Shown: positions 29,770 through 57,802 of the stretch, one piece after another | Position numbering within the stretch: position 1 is the stretch's first letter | How the letters are laid out: every line of letters begins with the position of its first letter | Source of the DNA: an uncultured Treponemataceae bacterium | GTDB taxonomy: Bacteria > Spirochaetota > Spirochaetia > Treponematales > Treponemataceae | Direction of reading: 5' to 3' | Assembly: GCA_964369735.1 (NCBI GenBank) | Contig: CAYJFX010000001.1 | Span: 346-64,345 of the forward strand | DNA: 64,000 bases | Notes under the pieces: generated by a model | Seen by the model: only the letters and a program-made list of their open reading frames with translations | What the model was told of the DNA's origin: nothing | Databases searched by the model: none | Position numbers and translations under genes: made by a program

Positions 29770-31266
29770 ATGGCAGACTCAAGACTAGACACATCGAAAA
29801 TTCAAAAAGCGGTACAAGCTGGGATTCCGCTTTCTATTATGACTCATACACTTCCTCATGAAATGGAACTGTACATGGCAGAGGTTCTTGTTGCTTTTTT
29901 AAAAGAGCTTAACCAAGAGGCAATGTCAGAATATTTGATTTACTGTTTAAATGAGCTTACAACGAATGCAAAAAAAGCAAACACAAAGCGTGTTTACTTT
30001 AAAGAAAAGGGGTTAGATATAAACAATCTTGCCGATTATGATGCAGGAATGAAGAATTTTAAGACAGATACCCTTGATAATATTAAACATTATTTAAAAA
30101 TGCAACAAGAGCAAGGATACTACATTAAGCTCATTTTCCAACATAAAGCAGGAAAAATAAAAATAGAAATTCGAAATAACACACCTTTAACAATATTTGA
30201 ATACAAACGTGTACATGATAAAATTGCGCGTGCACAACGGTACTCTTCTGTTGATGACGCGTTTTCACAAATTTTGGACGACTCTGAGGGTGCAGGCCTT
30301 GGAATTATTATCATGATTCTTATGTTAAAAAAACTTGGCCTAACAGGTGATAGCTTTCAGGTTTTTTCAGAGAACAATGAAACAGTCTCTCGAATAATAC
30401 TTCCTCTCATGGGAGATGCACAAGAGAAAATTTCTTTGCTTTCATCTGATTTGGTACAAATGATTGACAAATTACCTCAGTTTCCAGAAAATATTCTTCA
30501 TATAAATAGCATGCTCAATGACCCTGATTTTAAACTATCAGATATAGCAAGAAGCATAAGTAGCGATGTTTCTCTTACTGCGGACCTTTTGAAACTTGTA
30601 AACTCTGCAGCGTTTTCATTATCTTCTCCATGTAGAAACATCCCTGATGCTGTCAAATTGGTAGGAACACGGGGAATTAAAAATTTGCTTTACTCTGTTG
30701 GGTCAATGAAATCTGTGGGAACGGTAACGGCTGAACAAAAGAAATTATGGCAACATAGTCATAGGGTTGCTTTTTATTCATATAATTTAAGCCGAAACTT
30801 TTTTTCAAAACAAAGGGATGTAATTGAAGATTCATATGTTTGTGGTCTATTGCATGATATGGGGAAAGGTGTTTTCTATTCGGCACAACCTCACTTCATG
30901 ACGAAGCTAAAAAATCTCAGCGAAGAAAAAACTATTGAACCTCATATGTTTGAAAAGCTACTTTCTGGGCAAAACCATGCTGAAATAGGCGCGTTAATTG
31001 CTGAAAAATGGAATTTTCCACCTGTAATTATAGAGACACTTCGTTTCCATCATGACCCTGACATTGCGAAACCTCTTTCAGCTGTTGTTTATTTTGCAAA
31101 CATGCTTGAAAACTATCAACATGGAGATATTGAGTACTATCAATTTGAAACAGATATTTTGGAATTATTTAAAATTACAAGTGAAGAGCAATTAGTACAA
31201 CTATCAGAAAAGCTTAAAGCTGCTTTTGAGGATGAGCAAGGAGATGGTGCGTCCATGCTTGTATAA
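29770..31266 (+). CDS. HDOD-domain signalling protein with an N-terminal GHKL-ATPase-like module
   Basis: N-box-like ELTTNAKKAN and G1-like DDSEGAGLG in the N-terminal half. HD-type motif GLLHDMGK and FHHDP in the C-terminal half. Confidence 0.75.
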   Translation: MADSRLDTSKIQKAVQAGIPLSIMTHTLPHEMELYMAEVLVAFLKELNQEAMSEYLIYCLNELTTNAKKANTKRVYFKEKGLDINNLADYDAGMKNFKTDTLDNIKHYLKMQQEQGYYIKLIFQHKAGKIKIEIRNNTPLTIFEYKRVHDKIARAQRYSSVDDAFSQILDDSEGAGLGIIIMILMLKKLGLTGDSFQVFSENNETVSRIILPLMGDAQEKISLLSSDLVQMIDKLPQFPENILHINSMLNDPDFKLSDIARSISSDVSLTADLLKLVNSAAFSLSSPCRNIPDAVKLVGTRGIKNLLYSVGSMKSVGTVTAEQKKLWQHSHRVAFYSYNLSRNFFSKQRDVIEDSYVCGLLHDMGKGVFYSAQPHFMTKLKNLSEEKTIEPHMFEKLLSGQNHAEIGALIAEKWNFPPVIIETLRFHHDPDIAKPLSAVVYFANMLENYQHGDIEYYQFETDILELFKITSEEQLVQLSEKLKAAFEDEQGDGASMLV

Positions 31267-45795: not shown

Positions 45796-46467
45796 GTGAA
45801 AGACTTAACATGGGAACATATACAAGGGGCAATCTTTGACCTTGATGGTACGCTCGTTGACTCAATGCAAGAATGGCAAAACATGGGGCACACTTATATA
45901 AAAATCAAAAATCTAGAACCCGAAGAAAAACTCAATGAAAAGTTATATCCTCTTACCATCATTCAAACAGCAGAATACCTCAATATCACATATGGTTTAA
46001 ATTTAGATAAAGAAACTATTATTAAAGAATGCAATGGCGTTATGGAGTCAGCATATAACACAACAGTGCCATTAAAACCCTTTGTAAAGGAGTTTTTGGA
46101 CCTTCTAAAAGAAAAAAATATTCCTATGTATGTGGCAACTGCAACAGATAGGCATTTAGTAGAAATGGCCTTAAGCAAACATGGAATTTCTAATTACTTT
46201 AAGGGTATTATTACTTCGACAGAGGCTGGGAGCGCAAAGGCAGAATCTCCTGCTATTTTTGACATGGCTAGAAAAACTCTATGCACTCCAGTAGAAAAAA
46301 CAATTATATTTGAAGATTCTTTTCATGCAATAAAAACAGCTAAAGAAGCAGGATACCCCGTTGCAGCCCTTTATGATTTAGCAGCCGCAAGAGATTTGGA
46401 AAAAATCAAAACCTTATCTGATTGGTTTTCTGATACTTTTGAAGCGTATGTAAAGGCCCTATTGTAA
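45796..46467 (+). CDS. HAD-superfamily phosphatase (subfamily IA)
   Basis: DLDGTLVDS motif I and FEDSFHAIKTAKEAG motif III/IV. GTG start. Confidence 0.85.
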   Translation: MKDLTWEHIQGAIFDLDGTLVDSMQEWQNMGHTYIKIKNLEPEEKLNEKLYPLTIIQTAEYLNITYGLNLDKETIIKECNGVMESAYNTTVPLKPFVKEFLDLLKEKNIPMYVATATDRHLVEMALSKHGISNYFKGIITSTEAGSAKAESPAIFDMARKTLCTPVEKTIIFEDSFHAIKTAKEAGYPVAALYDLAAARDLEKIKTLSDWFSDTFEAYVKALL

Positions 46468-47394
46468 GTTTTTTATTTCTTGCTCTGAAAGACCAGTGAG
46501 TTCAACAATGGTTTGTATCTCTAAGCCTTTTGCTAGCGCACTCTTTGCCAGTTTTATCTTTTCTTGTAGTACACCTTGTACTATGCCTTGTTCTAATCCT
46601 TCTTTATGACCTTCTGCATGTCCTTGAACTCTACCTTCCGCTCTACCTTCTTTTAAGCCTTCTTGTCGTGCTTCATATCTCTCATAATCAAGGGCAGCGG
46701 CTTGCCCGTTTAAAAATATTTCTCTTTTTTCATATTCACTTATTAAATCACTGTCAGATACAAAATATTCGTAGTCTCCTACTGCTTTCTTAAATACTTC
46801 ACCTCTCATGGCAATTACGTCCTTTTCTCTTTCAAAGTCTTTCGAGCCAAAATAGCTTAGCCATGTTTTTAGCTCATCCTCTTTTACTGCCATATGCATC
46901 TTTGGTAGTTCCAAAAAATGTATCTCCAGTTTATCGTTACTCACTTTTTTATTTTGCACACAATGTATCATATGTGACGTATGTGCAAAGTCTATATCAT
47001 CAAACATTGTAAAGTCAACTATGTTTATGCTTATTACTGGCATAAAGCGCCTTACTTCAATGCCGTTTTCATTTTTTATTCTTTCTGCTCGGTATGTTCT
47101 TGCCCAGTATTCTAATACACGGTCAAAAAAGGTTTTGTTTCCTTGTACTTGAACTTCAATAATTACCTTTTCACCTGAAGATGTAATAGCTTTAACATCG
47201 ACAATGGTTTCAGACTCCGTAGAATGTTCTTTTAGGTTGTACGGATTGGTCACCGTAACACTTGCAAACTCTTCTAGGTCGTTGTCTCTCATTACTGCGT
47301 TTATAAAGTTTAACAGTAATGGCTCATTTTCACGTTGTCCTAAAAGATACCGCGCAAAGTAGTCGTTCATACGTGAAATTTCTTTGTTATTCAT
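46459..47394 (-). CDS. Rpn/YhgA-like PD-(D/E)XK recombination-promoting nuclease (putative transposase family)
   Basis: N-terminal PDDEXK_2-like core (DVKAITSSGEKVIIEVQV) and a degenerate C-terminal EG/QG-rich segment (QEGLKEGRAEGRVQGHAEGHKEGLEQGIVQG). AGGAG lies 7 nt upstream of the ATG. Confidence 0.8.
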   Translation of the reverse strand: MNNKEISRMNDYFARYLLGQRENEPLLLNFINAVMRDNDLEEFASVTVTNPYNLKEHSTESETIVDVKAITSSGEKVIIEVQVQGNKTFFDRVLEYWARTYRAERIKNENGIEVRRFMPVISINIVDFTMFDDIDFAHTSHMIHCVQNKKVSNDKLEIHFLELPKMHMAVKEDELKTWLSYFGSKDFEREKDVIAMRGEVFKKAVGDYEYFVSDSDLISEYEKREIFLNGQAAALDYERYEARQEGLKEGRAEGRVQGHAEGHKEGLEQGIVQGVLQEKIKLAKSALAKGLEIQTIVELTGLSEQEIKNLQ

Positions 47395-47615
47395 AGTATA
47401 CTCCTATTTGAGGAATTTTTCAACCGTTTGTACAAGCAGTTGAGCAAGAAAGAATTTTTACATATTATTATTTTAGTAATTTTTGTGAGAAATTTGACTG
47501 ATTTTAGAAATTTTCGAGAATTTTTTAATTTTTATGTACGCTTTATAAGCGTAAAACTTTATCTTTTTTCTTGAAGAAAAGAACGTAAGCAAGCTTACTA
47601 TCACAAAAGACGTGT

Positions 47616-47721
47616 GGGGATGTTCTGATTCATCCCCCAGGCTTCCATAACGCCGTTCTTCTGCCTTTGGGCAGACAACCTTGGTGGTACACGGTACCGT
47701 TTTCAGATGTGAAAACAGTAC
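47616..47721 (-). other. GC-richer structured segment immediately downstream of the FGE gene (three hairpins)
   Basis: Minus-strand hairpins: a 12-bp stem at 47694-47721, a 5-bp stem at 47661-47674 and a 7-bp stem at 47616-47637, followed by CUUUUGUG. A 34-codon ORF (47630-47734) overlaps it. Confidence 0.4.
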
Positions 47722-47742
47722 AGTGTTCGTACATATTAATTG

Positions 47743-48723
47743 TTAATTGCTAACAGAACGAGCAACACGGAAGCCAAGAACGTTGTATCGAATGCTAGGA
47801 GTGTCGTTGTAGCGATCGACTACGCGCAAAAAAAACGAACCACCGTTCCAGCTACCGCCACGATACACACGGCTCGAGCCTCCAGTGTATGTGTCATAAC
47901 ACCATTCATACACGTTCCCGCTCATGTCATACAAGCCCAGTGCATTGTGTTTCTTTGTTCCTACATCTTTACTTCCGTAATTTGGATCAGGTGTAGAAGC
48001 ATTATATTCTCCATTATTCATCCAATACCATGCATAGTCTCTTAAATCTTTTGTAGGGTCATTATCGTCTATGCCATCTCCTTCATTAGTACGACTGTCA
48101 TTATCCAAATCATTGGGGTCTAAAACATCTGTTATTATGTTAACTCCTGCATGGCTGTTTCTTACTTCATTTTTTTCCCAGCCTGCGGCATACTCCCATT
48201 CCTTCTCTGTCGGTAAGCGGTAGCCATCTGCATTCTCATCATATGTTGCAGCATTCCATGTAGCATCATTTGCATCTGGTATCTCTTCTGCTGTTATTGT
48301 TGCAAAATTAACGCCTGTTACAGCGTATACAGGTGTTAAGTCTTCTTTTATACTCAACTTATTACAAAATGTTATCGCATCATACCAACTTACCCAATAT
48401 GCAGGTCTATCATCTCCAAGACCATATTCGTCAGATGGTACTTCACCGTCAGCTGTACCTGGCCAGTCTCCCATTACCTCTTTCCACTGCCCTTGAGTTA
48501 CTTCCGTTTCTGCTAAGTAAAAGTCTGCTACGGTTGTTAAGTTATCTGGGTCTATGGCAACTTCCCCAAAAGTATAGTCGCCCCCTTCTACCAGTATCAT
48601 AGGCATAAATGGTGGTGCAGGTGTTTCACTCCCACCATTTCCGCTGTCGGTTGGTTGTGGACAGCCCACTAATACTAAGCCAAGCACTACGGCTAGGCTT
48701 ATCACAACTACTAGTTTTTTCAT
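47743..48723 (-). CDS. FGE-sulfatase (SUMF1/DUF323) domain lipoprotein
   Basis: Lipobox LVLVGC. FGE-fold blocks include RPAYWVSWYDAITFCN, GYRLPTEKEWEYAA, GLYDMSGNVYEWC, RGGSW and LGFRVAR. AGGAG lies 7 nt upstream. Confidence 0.88.
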   Translation of the reverse strand: MKKLVVVISLAVVLGLVLVGCPQPTDSGNGGSETPAPPFMPMILVEGGDYTFGEVAIDPDNLTTVADFYLAETEVTQGQWKEVMGDWPGTADGEVPSDEYGLGDDRPAYWVSWYDAITFCNKLSIKEDLTPVYAVTGVNFATITAEEIPDANDATWNAATYDENADGYRLPTEKEWEYAAGWEKNEVRNSHAGVNIITDVLDPNDLDNDSRTNEGDGIDDNDPTKDLRDYAWYWMNNGEYNASTPDPNYGSKDVGTKKHNALGLYDMSGNVYEWCYDTYTGGSSRVYRGGSWNGGSFFLRVVDRYNDTPSIRYNVLGFRVARSVSN

Positions 48724-48842
48724 ATAAAACTCCTTTTAATTATCAATTGCTTAAAGGTTACAAAAGGAGTGCCTTCAACGAATAGCAGTTGTCCCCTTTG
48801 CACCTTTTTGCAATGGGGTTACTGTACTTTGGGCATAAAAAG

Positions 48843-48880
48843 AGCCACAAAATTTCGGGGGCTTCGCCCCGTTTGTGGCT
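48843..48880. terminator. Strong hairpin with U-runs on both strands
   Basis: AGCCACAAA..GGGGC-TTC-GCCCC..TTTGTGGCT. It is followed on the plus strand by TGTTTTTGTGCGCTTTTTT and on the minus strand by CTTTTTAT. Confidence 0.75.
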
Positions 48881-48939
48881 TGTTTTTGTGCGCTTTTTTA
48901 TTAGTTTTTTGATTTAGTTGTTTTAGTCGAGAGGTAGGT

Positions 48940-49008
48940 TTATGGCAAGTGCTGTGCTGTGCTGTGCTGTGCTGTGCTGTGCTGTGCTGTGCTCTTCATC
49001 TTACGCAT
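48940..49008 (-). CDS. Candidate 22-codon leader mini-ORF, MRKMK(STAQH)3LP, built on the microsatellite
   Basis: ATG preceded by GAGAGAGGAGAC (short SD spacing). The repeat supplies 15 of the 22 codons. Stop TAA at 48940-48942. Confidence 0.35.
   Translation of the reverse strand: MRKMKSTAQHSTAQHSTAQHLP
48949..48993. repeat. Perfect pentanucleotide microsatellite, 9 copies (GTGCT on plus, AGCAC on minus)
   Basis: Counted directly: 45 nt with no interruption. Confidence 0.97.
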
Positions 49009-49032
49009 GTCTCCTCTCTCTTTATGGTCTCT

Positions 49033-49061
49033 ATTGTAGCACGGTTTGGGGTATTTGGCAA
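49033..49061 (-). promoter_or_regulatory. Near-consensus sigma70-type promoter just downstream of the fhs stop
   Basis: The minus strand reads TTGCCA (49061-49056), a 17-nt spacer and TACAAT (49038-49033). Confidence 0.55.
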
Positions 49062-49074
49062 GGGTTTATTCCCC

Positions 49075-50760
49075 TTAAAACAAGCCCGAAATGTTTCCTT
49101 CGTCGTCTACATCAATAGAACAAGCGGCTGGTACCTTTGGTAAGCCAGGCATGGTCATAATATCGCCTGCTAAAACGACCACAAAGCCTGCTCCCGAATA
49201 CAATTGCACATCGCGAACAGGAAATACGTAATCTTTAGGGGCACCAAAAAGAGCCTTGTCGTGGCTTATGGAGTTTTGTGTTTTTGCAACACAAATAGGT
49301 AGGTTTACATATCCTGCCTCGGAGTACTCTTTTAGTTTTCGTAAGGCTAAAGGTGAAAACTCAACGCTCTTTGCCCGGTATATTGATGTTGCAAGCTTTT
49401 CAATTTTGGAGGTAAAAGGCTCTGAGAGCTCATATAAGGGCTTAAAATGGCTCTTTTTTGCTTCAATTGTACTCACAATTGTTTTTGCTAATAAAGAGGT
49501 TCCTTCGCCGCCTTTTTCCCAGCCTTCACTTAACACACATTCCACACCTTGGTTTTTGCAAAGTTCTGTAACAGCATTAACTTCTGCCTCTTTGTCTAGC
49601 ATAAATTTGTTAAGTGCAACAATTGCGGGAACACCAAACTTAGAAATGTTTTCAATGTGTGTTTGTAAGTTTTCAAAACCTTTTTTTACGGCTTCAACAT
49701 TTTCTTTTGATAAGTCTTCTTTTTTTACACCACCATGCATTTTAAGGGCTCTAATTGTTGCAACAATAACAACCGCGCTTGGCTCAATACCTGCACTTCG
49801 GCACTTTATATCCATAAACTTTTCTGCGCCCAAATCGGCAGCAAAGCCAGCTTCAGTTACCACATATTCTCCGAGGGCAAGCGCACTAAGAGTAGCATTA
49901 ACACTATTGCAACCATGCGCAATGTTTGCAAATGGCCCCCCGTGCACAAAAGCAGGTGTTTTTTCTAATGTTTGTACTAAGTTGGGTTTTATAACATCTT
50001 TTAAAAGAGCTACTATGGCTCCAGCAACACCAAGAGATTTAAGCGTTACAAATTGCTTTGAATAATTTTTTGCAATAATAATGGAGTTTATGCGTTCTTT
50101 TAATTCTTTTATGTTTTTTGATAGACATACAATTGCCATAATTTCACTTGCTACGGCAATAGAAAAATGATCTTCTCTTGTTACCCCGTCACCTCTTTCT
50201 CCAAGTCCCACAACAACATTTCTTAAAACCCTGTCGTTTAAATCAACACACCTTTTCCACGTTACCGTTTTTGGGTCAATGCCGAGTTCGTTTCCCTGCT
50301 GAAGATGGTTATCAATAAGGGCTGCAATAAGATTATTTGCAATAGAAATGGCATGAATGTCACCAGTAAAATGAAGATTTATGTCTTCCATAGGGACAAT
50401 TTGCGAATATCCACCGCCGCAGGCCCCTCCTTTTACCCCAAAGCATGGTCCTAAAGAAGGTTCTCTAAGTGCTATAATAGATTTTTTTCCTATTTTTCGA
50501 AGACCATCACCTAAGCCTACTGTTACGGTAGACTTTCCTTCTCCTGCTGGAGTGGGTGTTACGGCCGTAACAAGAATAAGCTTTCCTCTTTTTTCTAAAG
50601 GTGTACTTTGTAGTTCATGTAATTTTTTAAGCGATAACTTTGCCTTATATCTACCAAATGATTCTATATCTTCATCACAAAGCGAAAGATTTTTTGCAAT
50701 GTCTGCAATAGGTAGCATTTCATTTTTTTGAGCAATTTCAATGTCCGTCAGTGCTTTCAT
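49075..50760 (-). CDS. fhs: Formate-tetrahydrofolate ligase
   Basis: TPAGEGKSTVTVGL P-loop and EPSLGPCFGVKGGA. Start chosen at MKALTDIEIAQ, which overlaps the upstream gene by 23 nt. Confidence 0.95.
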   Translation of the reverse strand: MKALTDIEIAQKNEMLPIADIAKNLSLCDEDIESFGRYKAKLSLKKLHELQSTPLEKRGKLILVTAVTPTPAGEGKSTVTVGLGDGLRKIGKKSIIALREPSLGPCFGVKGGACGGGYSQIVPMEDINLHFTGDIHAISIANNLIAALIDNHLQQGNELGIDPKTVTWKRCVDLNDRVLRNVVVGLGERGDGVTREDHFSIAVASEIMAIVCLSKNIKELKERINSIIIAKNYSKQFVTLKSLGVAGAIVALLKDVIKPNLVQTLEKTPAFVHGGPFANIAHGCNSVNATLSALALGEYVVTEAGFAADLGAEKFMDIKCRSAGIEPSAVVIVATIRALKMHGGVKKEDLSKENVEAVKKGFENLQTHIENISKFGVPAIVALNKFMLDKEAEVNAVTELCKNQGVECVLSEGWEKGGEGTSLLAKTIVSTIEAKKSHFKPLYELSEPFTSKIEKLATSIYRAKSVEFSPLALRKLKEYSEAGYVNLPICVAKTQNSISHDKALFGAPKDYVFPVRDVQLYSGAGFVVVLAGDIMTMPGLPKVPAACSIDVDDEGNISGLF

Positions 50761-52435
50761 GTTTTTTTTCCTCAAATACATGTCCAATTATCGCTTTCGC
50801 AACGGTTTCTCCATCCATTGCAGAAGAAACGATTCCCCCAGAGTAACCTGCGCCTTCTCCTGCTGGGAAAACCCCTTTTAGCACTGGATTTTCACACGTT
50901 TGAGAGTGGCGTAATATTCGAAGAGGTGTAGAGGTTCTTGTTTCTGGCGCAATTAAAACCGCTTCTTCACACACAAACCCTTTCACCTTTTTATCGAACT
51001 CATGAAAAGCTTCTTGTAGTCTAAGCGAAATATGCTCAGGAAGCCATAAGTCTAAGCGAGAAGAAACAAGACCCGGAACATAAGATGTTTCAGGAAGTGT
51101 TTTTGAAAGCCGCCCTTCTAAAAAGTCTTTAAGCCTCTGTGCGGGGGCAGCCTGTGGATTTTTTGCCTTTCCTTTTTTTGCTTGGTTAAAAGCTTCTTCT
51201 TCTATGCTGTTTCTAAAGTTAAGCCCTGCAAGCACATCATTTCCAAACTCAGAAGGAATATCTTCAGGCCTTGTTTCAACAACAAAGGCAGCATTTGACC
51301 AAACAGAGTTTCTTTTTGAAGACGACATTCCATTTACAACAAGATGGTTTGATGCACTAGAAGAAGGAACAACAAAACCACCTGGGCACATGCAAAAAGA
51401 ATAGACACCGCGCCCTGCAATTTGAGCGGTAAGCTTATATTCTGCAGAAGGAAGGTTCGCCTCTTCATTTGACTGTCCGTATTGGATGTGGTCAATAAGC
51501 TCTCGAGGATGTTCTAATCGAGCCCCAATTGCAAAGGTTTTTGCTTCTAAAGCTTGCTGTAACACATAGAGTCTATTATCACTGGTAACGCTTGCATGCG
51601 CAAGAGCAGCTTTTGCAACGAGCCTATAGATGTCATCAGCAGAATGCCCTGTTGCAAGCAAGACATTTTGTGTTTCAATGCGTTCTTTTTTCTTTGTTTC
51701 TGTATGCTCAATTTGTACTGCTCTTATATGATGATTTTCATCAAAATCAAAATCTACACACTTTGTATTAAAAAGAATCTCTCCGCCAAAAGAGCGAATA
51801 GTTGCCGAGATAGCGCTAATTATTTCAGGTAGTTTTTCTGTTCCTATGTGTGGGTGTGAATCCGATAAAATTGATTTATCTGCGCCGTGATGATGTAGAA
51901 TTGACAAGATATGTGAAATATCTCCGCGTTTATTTGAACGGGAATACAATTTTCCATCAGAAAAGGTTCCTGCTCCCCCTTCTCCATAACAGTAATTCGA
52001 GTTTTCTTCAACCTTACCTGTTCTACTTATTTCTGCAATATCCTTCTTTCTTTGTGTTGCTTCATGACCTCTTTCAATAATTACTGGTTTAATTCCTTTT
52101 TCTAAAAAGGTAAGCGCTGCAAAAAGGCCTGCTGGCCCTGCCCCAATAATAAAAACTTTTTTTGTTGGGTCGGCCTCTTTCCATTCTGGGTCAAAGCTAT
52201 CTGATGGGGTTTCCCCTACATATACTGCATACCGAATATGAATCTTTACATCTTTGCGCCGTGCATCTATTGATTTTTTTTTGCATACAATTGCAGAAAC
52301 TTCTGAGCTTCCTACATATGTACCACTATCACTTAACATGCGCAATATTCTTTTTTTAACTAATTCTTTGTCATCCTCTTGTCCTGGAAAAAGAGTTAAC
52401 ATTACCTCATAAATCATATAAAAAGTATATATCAT
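50738..52435 (-). CDS. FAD-dependent protein (COG2509-type NAD(FAD)-utilising dehydrogenase)
   Basis: VFIIGAGPAGLFAAL dinucleotide motif and C-terminal GVFPAGEGAGYSGGIVSSAMDG. Three candidate ATGs lie within the first 12 codons. Confidence 0.85.
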   Translation of the reverse strand: MIYTFYMIYEVMLTLFPGQEDDKELVKKRILRMLSDSGTYVGSSEVSAIVCKKKSIDARRKDVKIHIRYAVYVGETPSDSFDPEWKEADPTKKVFIIGAGPAGLFAALTFLEKGIKPVIIERGHEATQRKKDIAEISRTGKVEENSNYCYGEGGAGTFSDGKLYSRSNKRGDISHILSILHHHGADKSILSDSHPHIGTEKLPEIISAISATIRSFGGEILFNTKCVDFDFDENHHIRAVQIEHTETKKKERIETQNVLLATGHSADDIYRLVAKAALAHASVTSDNRLYVLQQALEAKTFAIGARLEHPRELIDHIQYGQSNEEANLPSAEYKLTAQIAGRGVYSFCMCPGGFVVPSSSASNHLVVNGMSSSKRNSVWSNAAFVVETRPEDIPSEFGNDVLAGLNFRNSIEEEAFNQAKKGKAKNPQAAPAQRLKDFLEGRLSKTLPETSYVPGLVSSRLDLWLPEHISLRLQEAFHEFDKKVKGFVCEEAVLIAPETRTSTPLRILRHSQTCENPVLKGVFPAGEGAGYSGGIVSSAMDGETVAKAIIGHVFEEKKHESTDGH

Positions 52436-56411: not shown

Positions 56412-57802
56412 GTAGTTTCGATGAAATTAGCCCCAAGCGCATTCATTGTTTCAAAAAAATTCGGAAAAGATACTTCATAACATTCAAAGTCGTTTATAAA
56501 AAGTTCTTCTCCTTCTGGTAATCCTAACGCTAGACAAGAAAATGACATTGCCACTCGATGGTCATGATAGCTTTCTATTGTTCCTCCATGTAGTGCAAAA
56601 TTTTTATTTTTTGTTCCATCGCGTGCTATTGGCGAGTGTCCTTCTATCACTAAGAAATCCTGCCCCTCGGTAATTGTTGCTCCAAGTTTAGACAGTTCCT
56701 TTGTCATTACCGTTAACCTATCTGTTTCTTTCTTTCTACAGACTCCTATATCTTCTAAAATAATTCTCCCATCCACAAAGCAAGCAATTGCAGCTAGCGC
56801 GCATACTGCATCGGGGTATCCAGAGCAGTTTATACGAAGCTCTTCTTTCTCTTGCGGCACGGCAAGCCTGCCTTCTACCCAACCATTTTTTTCATTGTGA
56901 ATAGTAGAATGTTGCCCTCCTCGTATTGTAAGAGTTTTGTCATTTGAATTTAACTCAATATCTGCTCCGATTGATTGTAAGACTTCAACAATTGCATCAT
57001 CACCTTGTGTTCCAGAAGTATCTATCTTCTCAATAATTATATGGCTACCAGATACAAGTGCTGCAATTAGAGGAAAAGCTACACCCTCCCAATCAGAAGG
57101 GACAGGAACATTAAACCCTTGTATAGAATAAGGACCAGAAACGGAAATATGTTTATAATCTGGACTTATTGAAACAGGGATTCCAGCTCCTTCAAGCCAG
57201 TGTTTTGTCATTTTTAAATAGGGTGTTTCTTTTGGATCTGTTAGCTCTATTGTTGTATTACCATCAAGAAGGCTTGCAGCCATCATCATCCCGCTAATGT
57301 ACTGTGATAACCGTCCATCGGTTTTTATTGAGCTTGCCTTTATTGGACCTTCAATCAAAATAGGAGGGGAATCTTTTCCTGGGCGGCTTATGTGCACCGT
57401 TGCTCCTGCTTGCTCTAAAAGGTCTTTTAAGTGCATAACGGGGCGAGTTCGAATAGAGTTGTCCCCCGTAAAAATACTCCATCCTGAAAAAGTTGCCGCA
57501 ATAGGACTTAAAAAATACAAAACTGAACCTGAGTTCCCAACATCTATTATGTTGTCTGGAAGATGTATGTTTTCTCCAGCTCCTTCAACTTTCCAGACCT
57601 TTGGATTGGAAAAGTCTGCTTTTGCACCCAATATTTCAATTGCCTTTGCGCACGAAATGCAATCTTCTCCAGTTAATGGATTCTCTATTTCTGATTTCCC
57701 ATGGGCTATGGCTGCTAAAAGAAGAGCTCTAATTGTATGGCTTTTTGATCCAGGAACGCGTGTTCTTCCGCTTAAAGTTGCTTTTTTTGCTAATATTTTC
57801 AT
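56408..57802 (-). CDS. aroA: 3-phosphoshikimate 1-carboxyvinyltransferase
   Basis: VPGSKSHTIRALLLAA, RPV..L and DHRVAMSF blocks. Confidence 0.92.
   Translation of the reverse strand: MKILAKKATLSGRTRVPGSKSHTIRALLLAAIAHGKSEIENPLTGEDCISCAKAIEILGAKADFSNPKVWKVEGAGENIHLPDNIIDVGNSGSVLYFLSPIAATFSGWSIFTGDNSIRTRPVMHLKDLLEQAGATVHISRPGKDSPPILIEGPIKASSIKTDGRLSQYISGMMMAASLLDGNTTIELTDPKETPYLKMTKHWLEGAGIPVSISPDYKHISVSGPYSIQGFNVPVPSDWEGVAFPLIAALVSGSHIIIEKIDTSGTQGDDAIVEVLQSIGADIELNSNDKTLTIRGGQHSTIHNEKNGWVEGRLAVPQEKEELRINCSGYPDAVCALAAIACFVDGRIILEDIGVCRKKETDRLTVMTKELSKLGATITEGQDFLVIEGHSPIARDGTKNKNFALHGGTIESYHDHRVAMSFSCLALGLPEGEELFINDFECYEVSFPNFFETMNALGANFIETT

Follow-up and report, generated by a model that had tools for sequence, protein, structure and literature searches.

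The 64-kb window analyzed here, a stretch of contig CAYJFX010000001.1 from an uncultured Treponemataceae bacterium (assembly GCA_964369735.1), carries on its minus strand the fhs gene for formate-tetrahydrofolate ligase (49075-50760; ORF list; Pfam FTHFS, E = 4e-261) and, after it, the gene of a TvpA-like lipoprotein of 326 amino acids (47743-48723). The region of interest is the leader that lies between them, positions 49061-48723 in window numbering, followed here in the minus-strand direction from the fhs stop codon (49077-49075) onward. It holds, in this order, a promoter-like sequence, a short open reading frame (ORF) with a pentanucleotide repeat, a predicted intrinsic terminator and the translation signals of the lipoprotein gene.

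Only 13 nt separate the fhs stop codon from the -35 box of the sigma-70-type promoter (49033-49061), which consists of TTGCCA (49061-49056), a 17-nt spacer and TACAAT (49038-49033). The promoter is TG-extended (TG at 49041-49040), matches the consensus at 10 of 12 positions and is the top-scoring promoter-like site within 47600-50900 in a promoter scan; transcription from it is predicted to start near 49026. A purine-rich Shine-Dalgarno (SD) region, GAGAGAGGAG (49011-49020), whose GGAG and GAGG motifs are spaced 2 and 4 nt, respectively, from the ATG, is followed by a mini-ORF of 22 codons (49008-48940; ORF list and frame analysis) that would encode MRKMK(STAQH)3LP, the peptide MRKMKSTAQHSTAQHSTAQHLP. 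Within it lies the perfect repeat (AGCAC)9 (48993-48949), proposed here as a hypermutable switch, for which Tandem Repeats Finder (TRF) reported period 5, 9.0 copies and 100% matches. It is the sole pentanucleotide repeat of at least 15 nt in the whole 64 kb, and the tract itself is clearly non-random. An A-rich spacer (48881-48948) leads to the predicted terminator, or attenuator (48835-48880), formed by a two-tier hairpin (48880-48843, -20.7 kcal/mol) and the subsequent CUUUUUAU to 48835; the hairpin was obtained by folding, and its inner stem was also picked up by a terminator scan. The terminator is thus placed between the mini-ORF stop and the lipoprotein gene, and the last 111 nt (48724-48834) constitute a distal 5' untranslated region (UTR) with the canonical SD AAGGAG (48735-48730). 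Sequence inspection, TRF, promoter scan and folding located promoter, mini-ORF, repeat, hairpin with U-run, SD and the ATG at 48723 where the initial annotation, made from the sequence alone, had placed them.

The position of the repeat is unlike that of two other kinds of simple sequence repeat (SSR). The tract starts 40 nt downstream of the -10 box and has no flanking promoter-like site, so that it does not correspond to an SSR in a promoter spacer; moreover, it occupies the stretch 226-270 nt ahead of the lipoprotein ATG, and the ORF of the lipoprotein is itself repeat-free, which sets it apart from in-gene SSRs of the opa type.

The relation between repeat number and reading frame was obtained by simulating different AGCAC unit counts in the window leader. 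With 9 units, as in the assembled allele, the mini-ORF ends at 48940 (TAA 48942-48940), 59 nt before the hairpin, and with 8 units it ends at 48923 (TAA 48925-48923), 42 nt before it; the stop with 11 units also falls in this range of 42-59 nt ahead of the stem. With 7, 10 or 13 units, and also with 4, the frame ..TCHKPTSRLKQLNQKTNKKAHKNKPQTGRSPRNFVALFMPKVQ stays open across the spacer, the stem and the U-tract up to the TAA at 48819-48821, which is 24 nt past the hairpin stem. The initial annotation had described the 9- and 10-unit frames in the same way, and only its 8-unit stop, given as about 48921, needed correction.

A mechanism can be proposed from these elements. Transcription would begin at the TG-extended promoter, and the first ~190 nt of the transcript would contain the short ORF with (AGCAC)n and then the intrinsic terminator, still inside the 5' UTR. 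When n is 8 or 9, ribosomes would halt 42 or 59 nt short of the hairpin, the hairpin would form and most transcripts would end at ~48835, giving a low or OFF state in which the sequenced 9-unit allele would be found. If slipped-strand mispairing added or removed one 5-nt unit, the frame would shift; when n is 7, 10 or 13 (1 mod 3), the ORF would span hairpin and U-tract to 48819, and ribosomes trailing the polymerase would block the hairpin and allow transcription to enter the lipoprotein gene (ON). That 49061-48723 is the 5' regulatory leader of the TvpA-like lipoprotein gene and works as a phase-variable transcription attenuator is a reading to which we give slightly better than even odds.

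The product of the downstream gene had been called an FGE lipoprotein, a name that is misleading. The protein has a FGE-sulfatase (C-type-lectin-fold) domain (Pfam PF03781, E = 2.6e-38) and the lipobox LVGC. Its C-terminal segment RGGSWNGGSFFLRVVDRYNDTPSIRYNVLGFRVARSVSN is free of cysteine, and it is in this segment that true formylglycine-generating enzymes (FGEs) have their catalytic cysteine pair; its best sequence match in the PDB is 2Y3C, the T. denticola variable protein 1 (TvpA), with E = 2.4e-38. For these two reasons it was rejected as a true formylglycine-generating enzyme. Lipoproteins of the TvpA type have the C-type-lectin fold, are found at the cell surface and serve as targets of diversity-generating retroelements (PMC4891356). 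No template repeat of such a retroelement for the lipoprotein gene was found in the window. ON/OFF switching of a TvpA-like protein would be biologically sensible.

Leaders homologous to that of the window were found ahead of five paralogous lipoprotein genes in three Treponema metagenome-assembled genomes (MAGs): L001, L082 and L083 belong to GCA_964370315.1, L084 to GCA_964372135.1 and L085 to GCA_964622185.1. The initial annotation had suggested a search for the leader at other FGE-lipoprotein paralogues; a homologous leader is present at these five genes, while the regions upstream of FGE paralogues with other signal peptides (L086-L089) are unrelated to it. Upstream DNA of the window gene and of the five paralogues was aligned (A1) for a six-leader comparison. 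The promoter is common to all six, as seen by alignment and by nhmmer; the relatives have the form CTTGAAAAA..TGCTAyAcT, the window the form CCTTGCCAAA..TGCTACAAT. Promoters were scanned at L001, L082 and L083, where the homologous sequence is the best coding-strand promoter-like site in the latter two and the second-best in L001. The upstream neighbour gene differs at each of the five paralogous loci; since the module accompanies the paralogues and not a given neighbour, it belongs to the lipoprotein gene and not to fhs.

The L084 and L085 leaders have the same promoter and ORF start without the repeat, the spacer and the outer stem. Because the promoter is here joined directly to the lipoprotein gene, it can be assigned to that gene. 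The L084 upstream ORF continues in frame into the lipoprotein ATG, and L085 retains a small hairpin remnant that its upstream ORF crosses. From this comparison, the repeat-terminator block behaves as an optional regulatory insert.

The upstream ORF of the relatives begins in a different manner from the mini-ORF of the window. In L082-L085 an ATG located 6-7 nt past the -10 box opens a conserved ORF, MNT(T/I)x(R/C)(C/S)xNK.., and such proximity implies a leaderless mRNA. The ATGCGT at the mini-ORF start of the window aligns in frame with an internal codon pair of these ORFs; L084 and L085 likewise have ATGCGT (Met-Arg) there, and L082 has ATACGT (Ile-Arg). The motif TGnTAnnnT, 5-8 nt ahead of the first ATG and with no SD, was present at 7 of 51 long window ORFs, against a background of 0.6%; the -10-proximal ATG of L082-L085 is for this reason a credible translated start, and leaderless mRNAs seem to be frequent in this Treponema. 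Such leaderless-type ATGs of the window include those at 29770, 42502, 13916 and 53895 on the plus strand and at 57802 and 63101 on the minus strand.

Pentanucleotide repeats occupy the same alignment columns in the different leaders although the unit is not the same: AGCAC x9 in the window, AGTTC x4 in L082, ATTCT x3.8 in L001 and, in L083, the degenerate AGTTC-ACTTC-AGTTC. Unit counts between paralogues are 9, 4, 3.8, 3 and 0. Perfect pentanucleotide repeats of at least 3 units were limited to the three in these leaders when the window and nine Treponema loci (~124 kb) were surveyed. In the window, L001, L082 and L083 the repeat is followed by an A-rich spacer and then by a strong hairpin and U-run, with energies of -20.7 to -26.9 kcal/mol for the four and -21 to -27 kcal/mol for the three relatives. 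Pairing of the outer stem is maintained through double changes (CCAC/GTGG, CCGC/GCGG, CCTC/GAGG); this covariation was taken from the individual folds, as the automatic alignment misplaced the 5' arm of the window hairpin.

The frames are also shared. Relative to the aligned hairpin, the three relatives with repeat and hairpin use one and the same frame (GIKTAK / GIKTAN / DIKTSK), which is the 10-unit frame of the window. The upstream ORFs of L082 and L083 cross the predicted terminator, in L083 with a stop that overlaps the lipoprotein ATG, and that of L001 terminates within the hairpin 3' arm. When the L082 repeat was changed by one or two units in a simulation, the stop moved to 25-29 nt before the hairpin. 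The window has by far the longest repeat and is the sole member with its upstream ORF out of frame. Translation across the hairpin appears to be the rule in this family, and the frame pattern across the leaders is coherent, though its statistics are modest. The idea of the initial annotation that the frame set by the repeat determines whether ribosomes cover the terminator is strengthened by the five homologous leaders, with their fixed repeat position, covarying hairpin, upstream ORFs in the 10-unit frame and lack of a promoter-like site after the hairpin.

The distance from terminator to ATG is merely 36-42 nt in L083 and L001. No promoter-like site with at least 9 of 12 consensus matches was detected between hairpin and gene in the window (48834-48724), L001, L082 or L083, with the proviso that non-consensus promoters are possible. 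From the short gap and the lack of a promoter-like site after the hairpin, the lipoprotein gene is probably transcribed through the hairpin. In L082, ~185 nt separate the leader terminator from the lipoprotein ATG, and right before the SD there is another, AT-rich hairpin and its U-run (AAAAAGACAATGTCAAAAACTGAAGTTTTTTGATTGTCATTTTT, 2440-2490).

These data bear on a simpler explanation, in which the hairpin is the fhs terminator, the repeat is a neutral sequence of the fhs 3' UTR, the mini-ORF is untranslated and the lipoprotein gene has a non-consensus promoter after the hairpin. The hairpin is indeed the first terminator past the fhs stop codon, ~195 nt downstream of it, the open third frame of the window is not significant alone, and Treponema promoters are so poorly defined that one in 48834-48724 could have been missed. 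Nevertheless, the module of promoter, repeat and hairpin also precedes paralogous lipoprotein genes that have unrelated upstream genes, with the repeat at a conserved position and, in L001 and L083, with little room between hairpin and ATG. Furthermore, the gene upstream of the L083 leader has just downstream a terminator-like hairpin of its own, which was scored on the opposite strand and has a palindromic stem. An fhs terminator with a bystander repeat is, in the light of this evidence, highly improbable.

Another possibility is that repeat number tunes expression by way of RNA length or structure, with no role for the frame, or that the region is a separate small RNA (sRNA) of ~190 nt, as the initial annotation had offered as an alternative. 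The stretch from promoter to terminator would be a discrete RNA of this size, and L001 lacks an ATG between the homologous -10 box and the repeat. In the minimum-energy fold (-21.1 kcal/mol, z = -2.5) the SD region of the mini-ORF can pair with CCUACCUCUC at 48938-48929. The helix 49018-49011/48938-48929, together with the start-codon stem 49008-48999/48950-48941, closes the repeat into a loop and hides both the SD and the start codon of the mini-ORF. However, a purely structural role does not account for a non-triplet period of 5 nt that is kept in four paralogues despite the differing unit, nor for a terminator-crossing frame that is open in all four, with upstream ORFs of L082, L083 and L085 that cross their hairpins. 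A stand-alone sRNA is, in addition, a poor fit to L084 and L085, where the same promoter and ORF start lead straight to the lipoprotein gene. A search against Rfam 15 yielded no family at gathering score; the sole match was VrrA, with 17.7 bits against a required 50 and E = 2.6, on the opposite strand. We regard a mechanism of RNA structure or an sRNA as unlikely.

Several observations weigh against the frame-controlled attenuator. Some of them concern the initiation of mini-ORF translation: the gap between SD and ATG is only 2-4 nt, compared with 5-7 nt for most window genes in a survey of SD spacing, and both elements can be sequestered in the helix mentioned above. For L001, the single ATG ahead of the repeat overlaps the homologous TG-extended -10 box, which rules it out as an ordinary start codon; its use would require an upstream promoter at 502-530. 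Others are statistical. When the sequence that follows the repeat was shuffled by dinucleotides, 35% of the shuffles had at least one frame open to the terminator end, so that the open third frame of the window alone is not beyond chance. The chance of one given frame being open across the spacer is 0.12 for the window, 0.58 for L001, 0.25 for L082 and 0.35 for L083, and these values are not independent because the loci are homologous. Just one frame in three is predicted to be ON, while both out-of-frame states are ON in the Streptococcus gallolyticus system described below. The features of Treponema promoters, the coupling of transcription and translation and the efficiency of the terminator are all assumed. 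No second genome of the species was found by protein look-ups or by two metagenome scans. The relatives have 3-4 units only, too few for frequent slippage, and are possibly fixed ON alleles; the window may carry an OFF allele that is dead.

This last point leads to the view of the window leader as a decayed relic, in which an ancestral ORF, like those of L082 and L083, constitutively read across the hairpin until expansion of the repeat broke the frame and left the gene permanently attenuated or silent. Its unique out-of-frame upstream ORF and the loss of the -10-adjacent ATG used by the relatives would be expected of such a relic. On the other hand, an uninterrupted perfect tract of 45 nt is typical of an actively slipping, not a decaying, repeat, the mini-ORF has an SD and an in-frame ATG, and the lipoprotein gene has an intact ORF and a canonical SD. 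Decay is thus an improbable explanation, and the phase-variable attenuator is preferred.

The searches for further relatives returned little, and this Treponema has no close relative in the collections searched. When contigs were looked up by the exact protein sequence of the lipoprotein or of fhs, nothing besides the source contig came up, and two scans of metagenome DNA, one for the mini-ORF start with the repeat and one for the conserved signal-peptide DNA, gave 0 matches each. Among 5.8 billion proteins none other than the lipoprotein itself was more than 52% identical to it. The window fhs is at most 73% identical to that of any species representative (70% over full length), and downstream of its best matches (L002-L008, Treponema, 65-73% identical) neither a related region nor synteny was seen. 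Regarding the leader family, a 48-residue N-terminal query had no match, the signal peptide SLAVVLGLVL was absent from 224 retrieved proteins except the six known members, nhmmer over the window and the retrieved Treponema loci detected no leaders beyond the six, and by BLAST the leader has no second copy in the window. In a profile search built on the six members, multi-domain FGE proteins dominated the matches.

The initial annotation knew of no described attenuator with an SSR in a leader peptide and took the arrangement as possibly new. This was mistaken, since Danne et al. 2014 (PLoS Pathog; PMC3894217) proved this mechanism for pil1 and pil3 of S. gallolyticus. In pil1, a promoter is followed by a leader ORF with ribosome-binding site and ATG that contains 22 GCAGA repeats, by a terminator and by pilA, and the leader stop lies 39 bp ahead of a stem-loop terminator of -18.7 kcal/mol; pil3 is built in the same way, with 13 repeats and a stop 33 bp before a hairpin of -28.2 kcal/mol (PMC3894217). 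When repeats are gained or lost out of frame, the pil1 leader peptide is extended so that it reaches into the hairpin or beyond it, and pil1 transcription increases; this model was confirmed by ATG, stop-codon and terminator-deletion mutants, and switching occurs at 5e-3 per cell per generation (PMC3894217). The window has the same order of parts, from a predicted promoter through pentanucleotide-repeat leader ORF and predicted terminator to a gene for a surface structure. Its short ORF has start signals and a non-triplet repeat, a predicted terminator follows, and a change in repeat number moves the stop past that terminator. The distance from stop to hairpin, 59 nt, compares with 39 and 33 bp, and the hairpin energy, -20.7 kcal/mol, with -18.7 and -28.2 kcal/mol.

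The differences are equally clear. There is no sequence homology between the window leader and those of pil1 and pil3, and the organisms belong to Spirochaetota and Firmicutes, respectively. The repeat is AGCAC x9 as against GCAGA x22 and x13, one of the two out-of-frame states would read through as against both, and the cargo is a TvpA-like lipoprotein gene instead of a pilus operon. The window relatives, unlike pil1 and pil3, appear to use leaderless upstream ORFs. Finally, the pil1/pil3 switch was proven experimentally, whereas the window arrangement is known from sequence alone. In the literature searched, SSR-in-leader-peptide attenuation was documented for S. gallolyticus pil1 and pil3 only, with no report for Treponema. 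The window leader is probably a new, non-homologous and independently evolved instance of the pil1-type switch. We give about an even chance to the wider proposal that a spirochaete lineage convergently evolved this switch as a portable 5' module that paralogous TvpA-like genes have acquired, lost and retuned, with turnover of the repeat units (AGCAC, AGTTC, ATTCT) at one fixed place and with ORFs that are often leaderless.

Other regulatory systems share single features with the window leader. In the pyrBI operon of E. coli, the leader ORF spans an intrinsic terminator and a close-following ribosome prevents formation of the hairpin. The ORF through the attenuator is common to both, but control in pyrBI depends on UTP-dependent polymerase pausing, a physiological signal, and not on a heritable change of repeat length, as proposed here. 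The variable lipoprotein families of Mycoplasma (vlp, vsp) combine promoter and signal peptide in a highly conserved 5' expression module that contains a simple repeat. In this respect they resemble the window family, whose paralogous lipoproteins have a conserved 5' module with a repeat and near-identical signal-peptide DNA; the Mycoplasma repeat, however, lies in or near the promoter and alters initiation, while that of the window lies past the -10 box and inside an ORF. In the opa family of Neisseria, slipped-strand frame shifts in coding repeats of the pentamer CTCTT produce stochastic ON/OFF expression of surface proteins (PMC3894217). The opa repeat is inside the structural gene, in its signal-peptide coding part, and acts on translation, as opposed to the separate upstream ORF before a terminator in the window. 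TvpA (2Y3C; PMC4891356) belongs to the same FGE-sulfatase/C-type-lectin-fold lipoprotein family as the window protein; it is varied by a retroelement at its C-terminal variable region, and the variation predicted for the window is ON/OFF and takes place at the leader.

The lipoprotein genes have additional features in common. The signal peptides of the relatives are nearly identical, MKK..SLAVVLGLVLVGCPQP, and so is the DNA that encodes them, AGCCTAGCCGTAGTGCTyGGCTTAGTATTAG, at 48723-48660 in the window, 785-850 in L001, 826-880 in L083 and 2501-2560 in L082. The mature parts of the same paralogues are just 40-52% identical. This suggests a shared 5' cassette homogenised by recombination or gene conversion. 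A PDDEXK_2/Rpn-type gene (recombination-promoting nuclease, transposase-like) is found downstream of an FGE/TvpA-like lipoprotein gene in four genomes: at 46459-47394 on the minus strand of the window, 2828-3694 in L084, 3315-4217 in L085 and 2821-3725 in L087. It adjoins the lipoprotein gene in the window and L085 and is separated from it by one gene in L084 and L087; the pairing may be linked to recombination between the paralogous lipoprotein genes. Imperfect 12-nt tandem repeats (46563-46650) in the window Rpn-type gene encode a EGRAEGRVQGHAEGHKEGLEQG segment of its C-terminal part. Around further FGE and Lcl_C lipoprotein genes of the related MAGs lie several copies of another intergenic repeat (L086 7230-7520, 9700-9900 and 11190-11800; L087 100-380 and 1730-2100), with motifs such as TAATTCCTAATGGTGG.GGGTAAAGCGAGGGAGAAA and AATCTGTGGATAA..TGACCA(A/G)TCTT(G/A)GTGG.

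If the proposed switch exists, leader-peptide attenuation by a repeat would be a convergent and general solution and not a peculiarity of S. gallolyticus. Its succession of promoter, short ORF carrying a non-triplet repeat, terminator and gene for a surface protein would be recognisable from sequence alone, which would make systematic searches practical. For MAGs, the assembled repeat number represents one state of the population, and raw reads could show a mixture of ON and OFF alleles. The comparison with TvpA suggests that an enzyme annotation of treponeme FGE-domain lipoproteins is misleading. Moreover, ON/OFF switching would be added to a family known so far for its retroelement-driven hypervariation, and would constitute a new layer of surface variation in treponemes.

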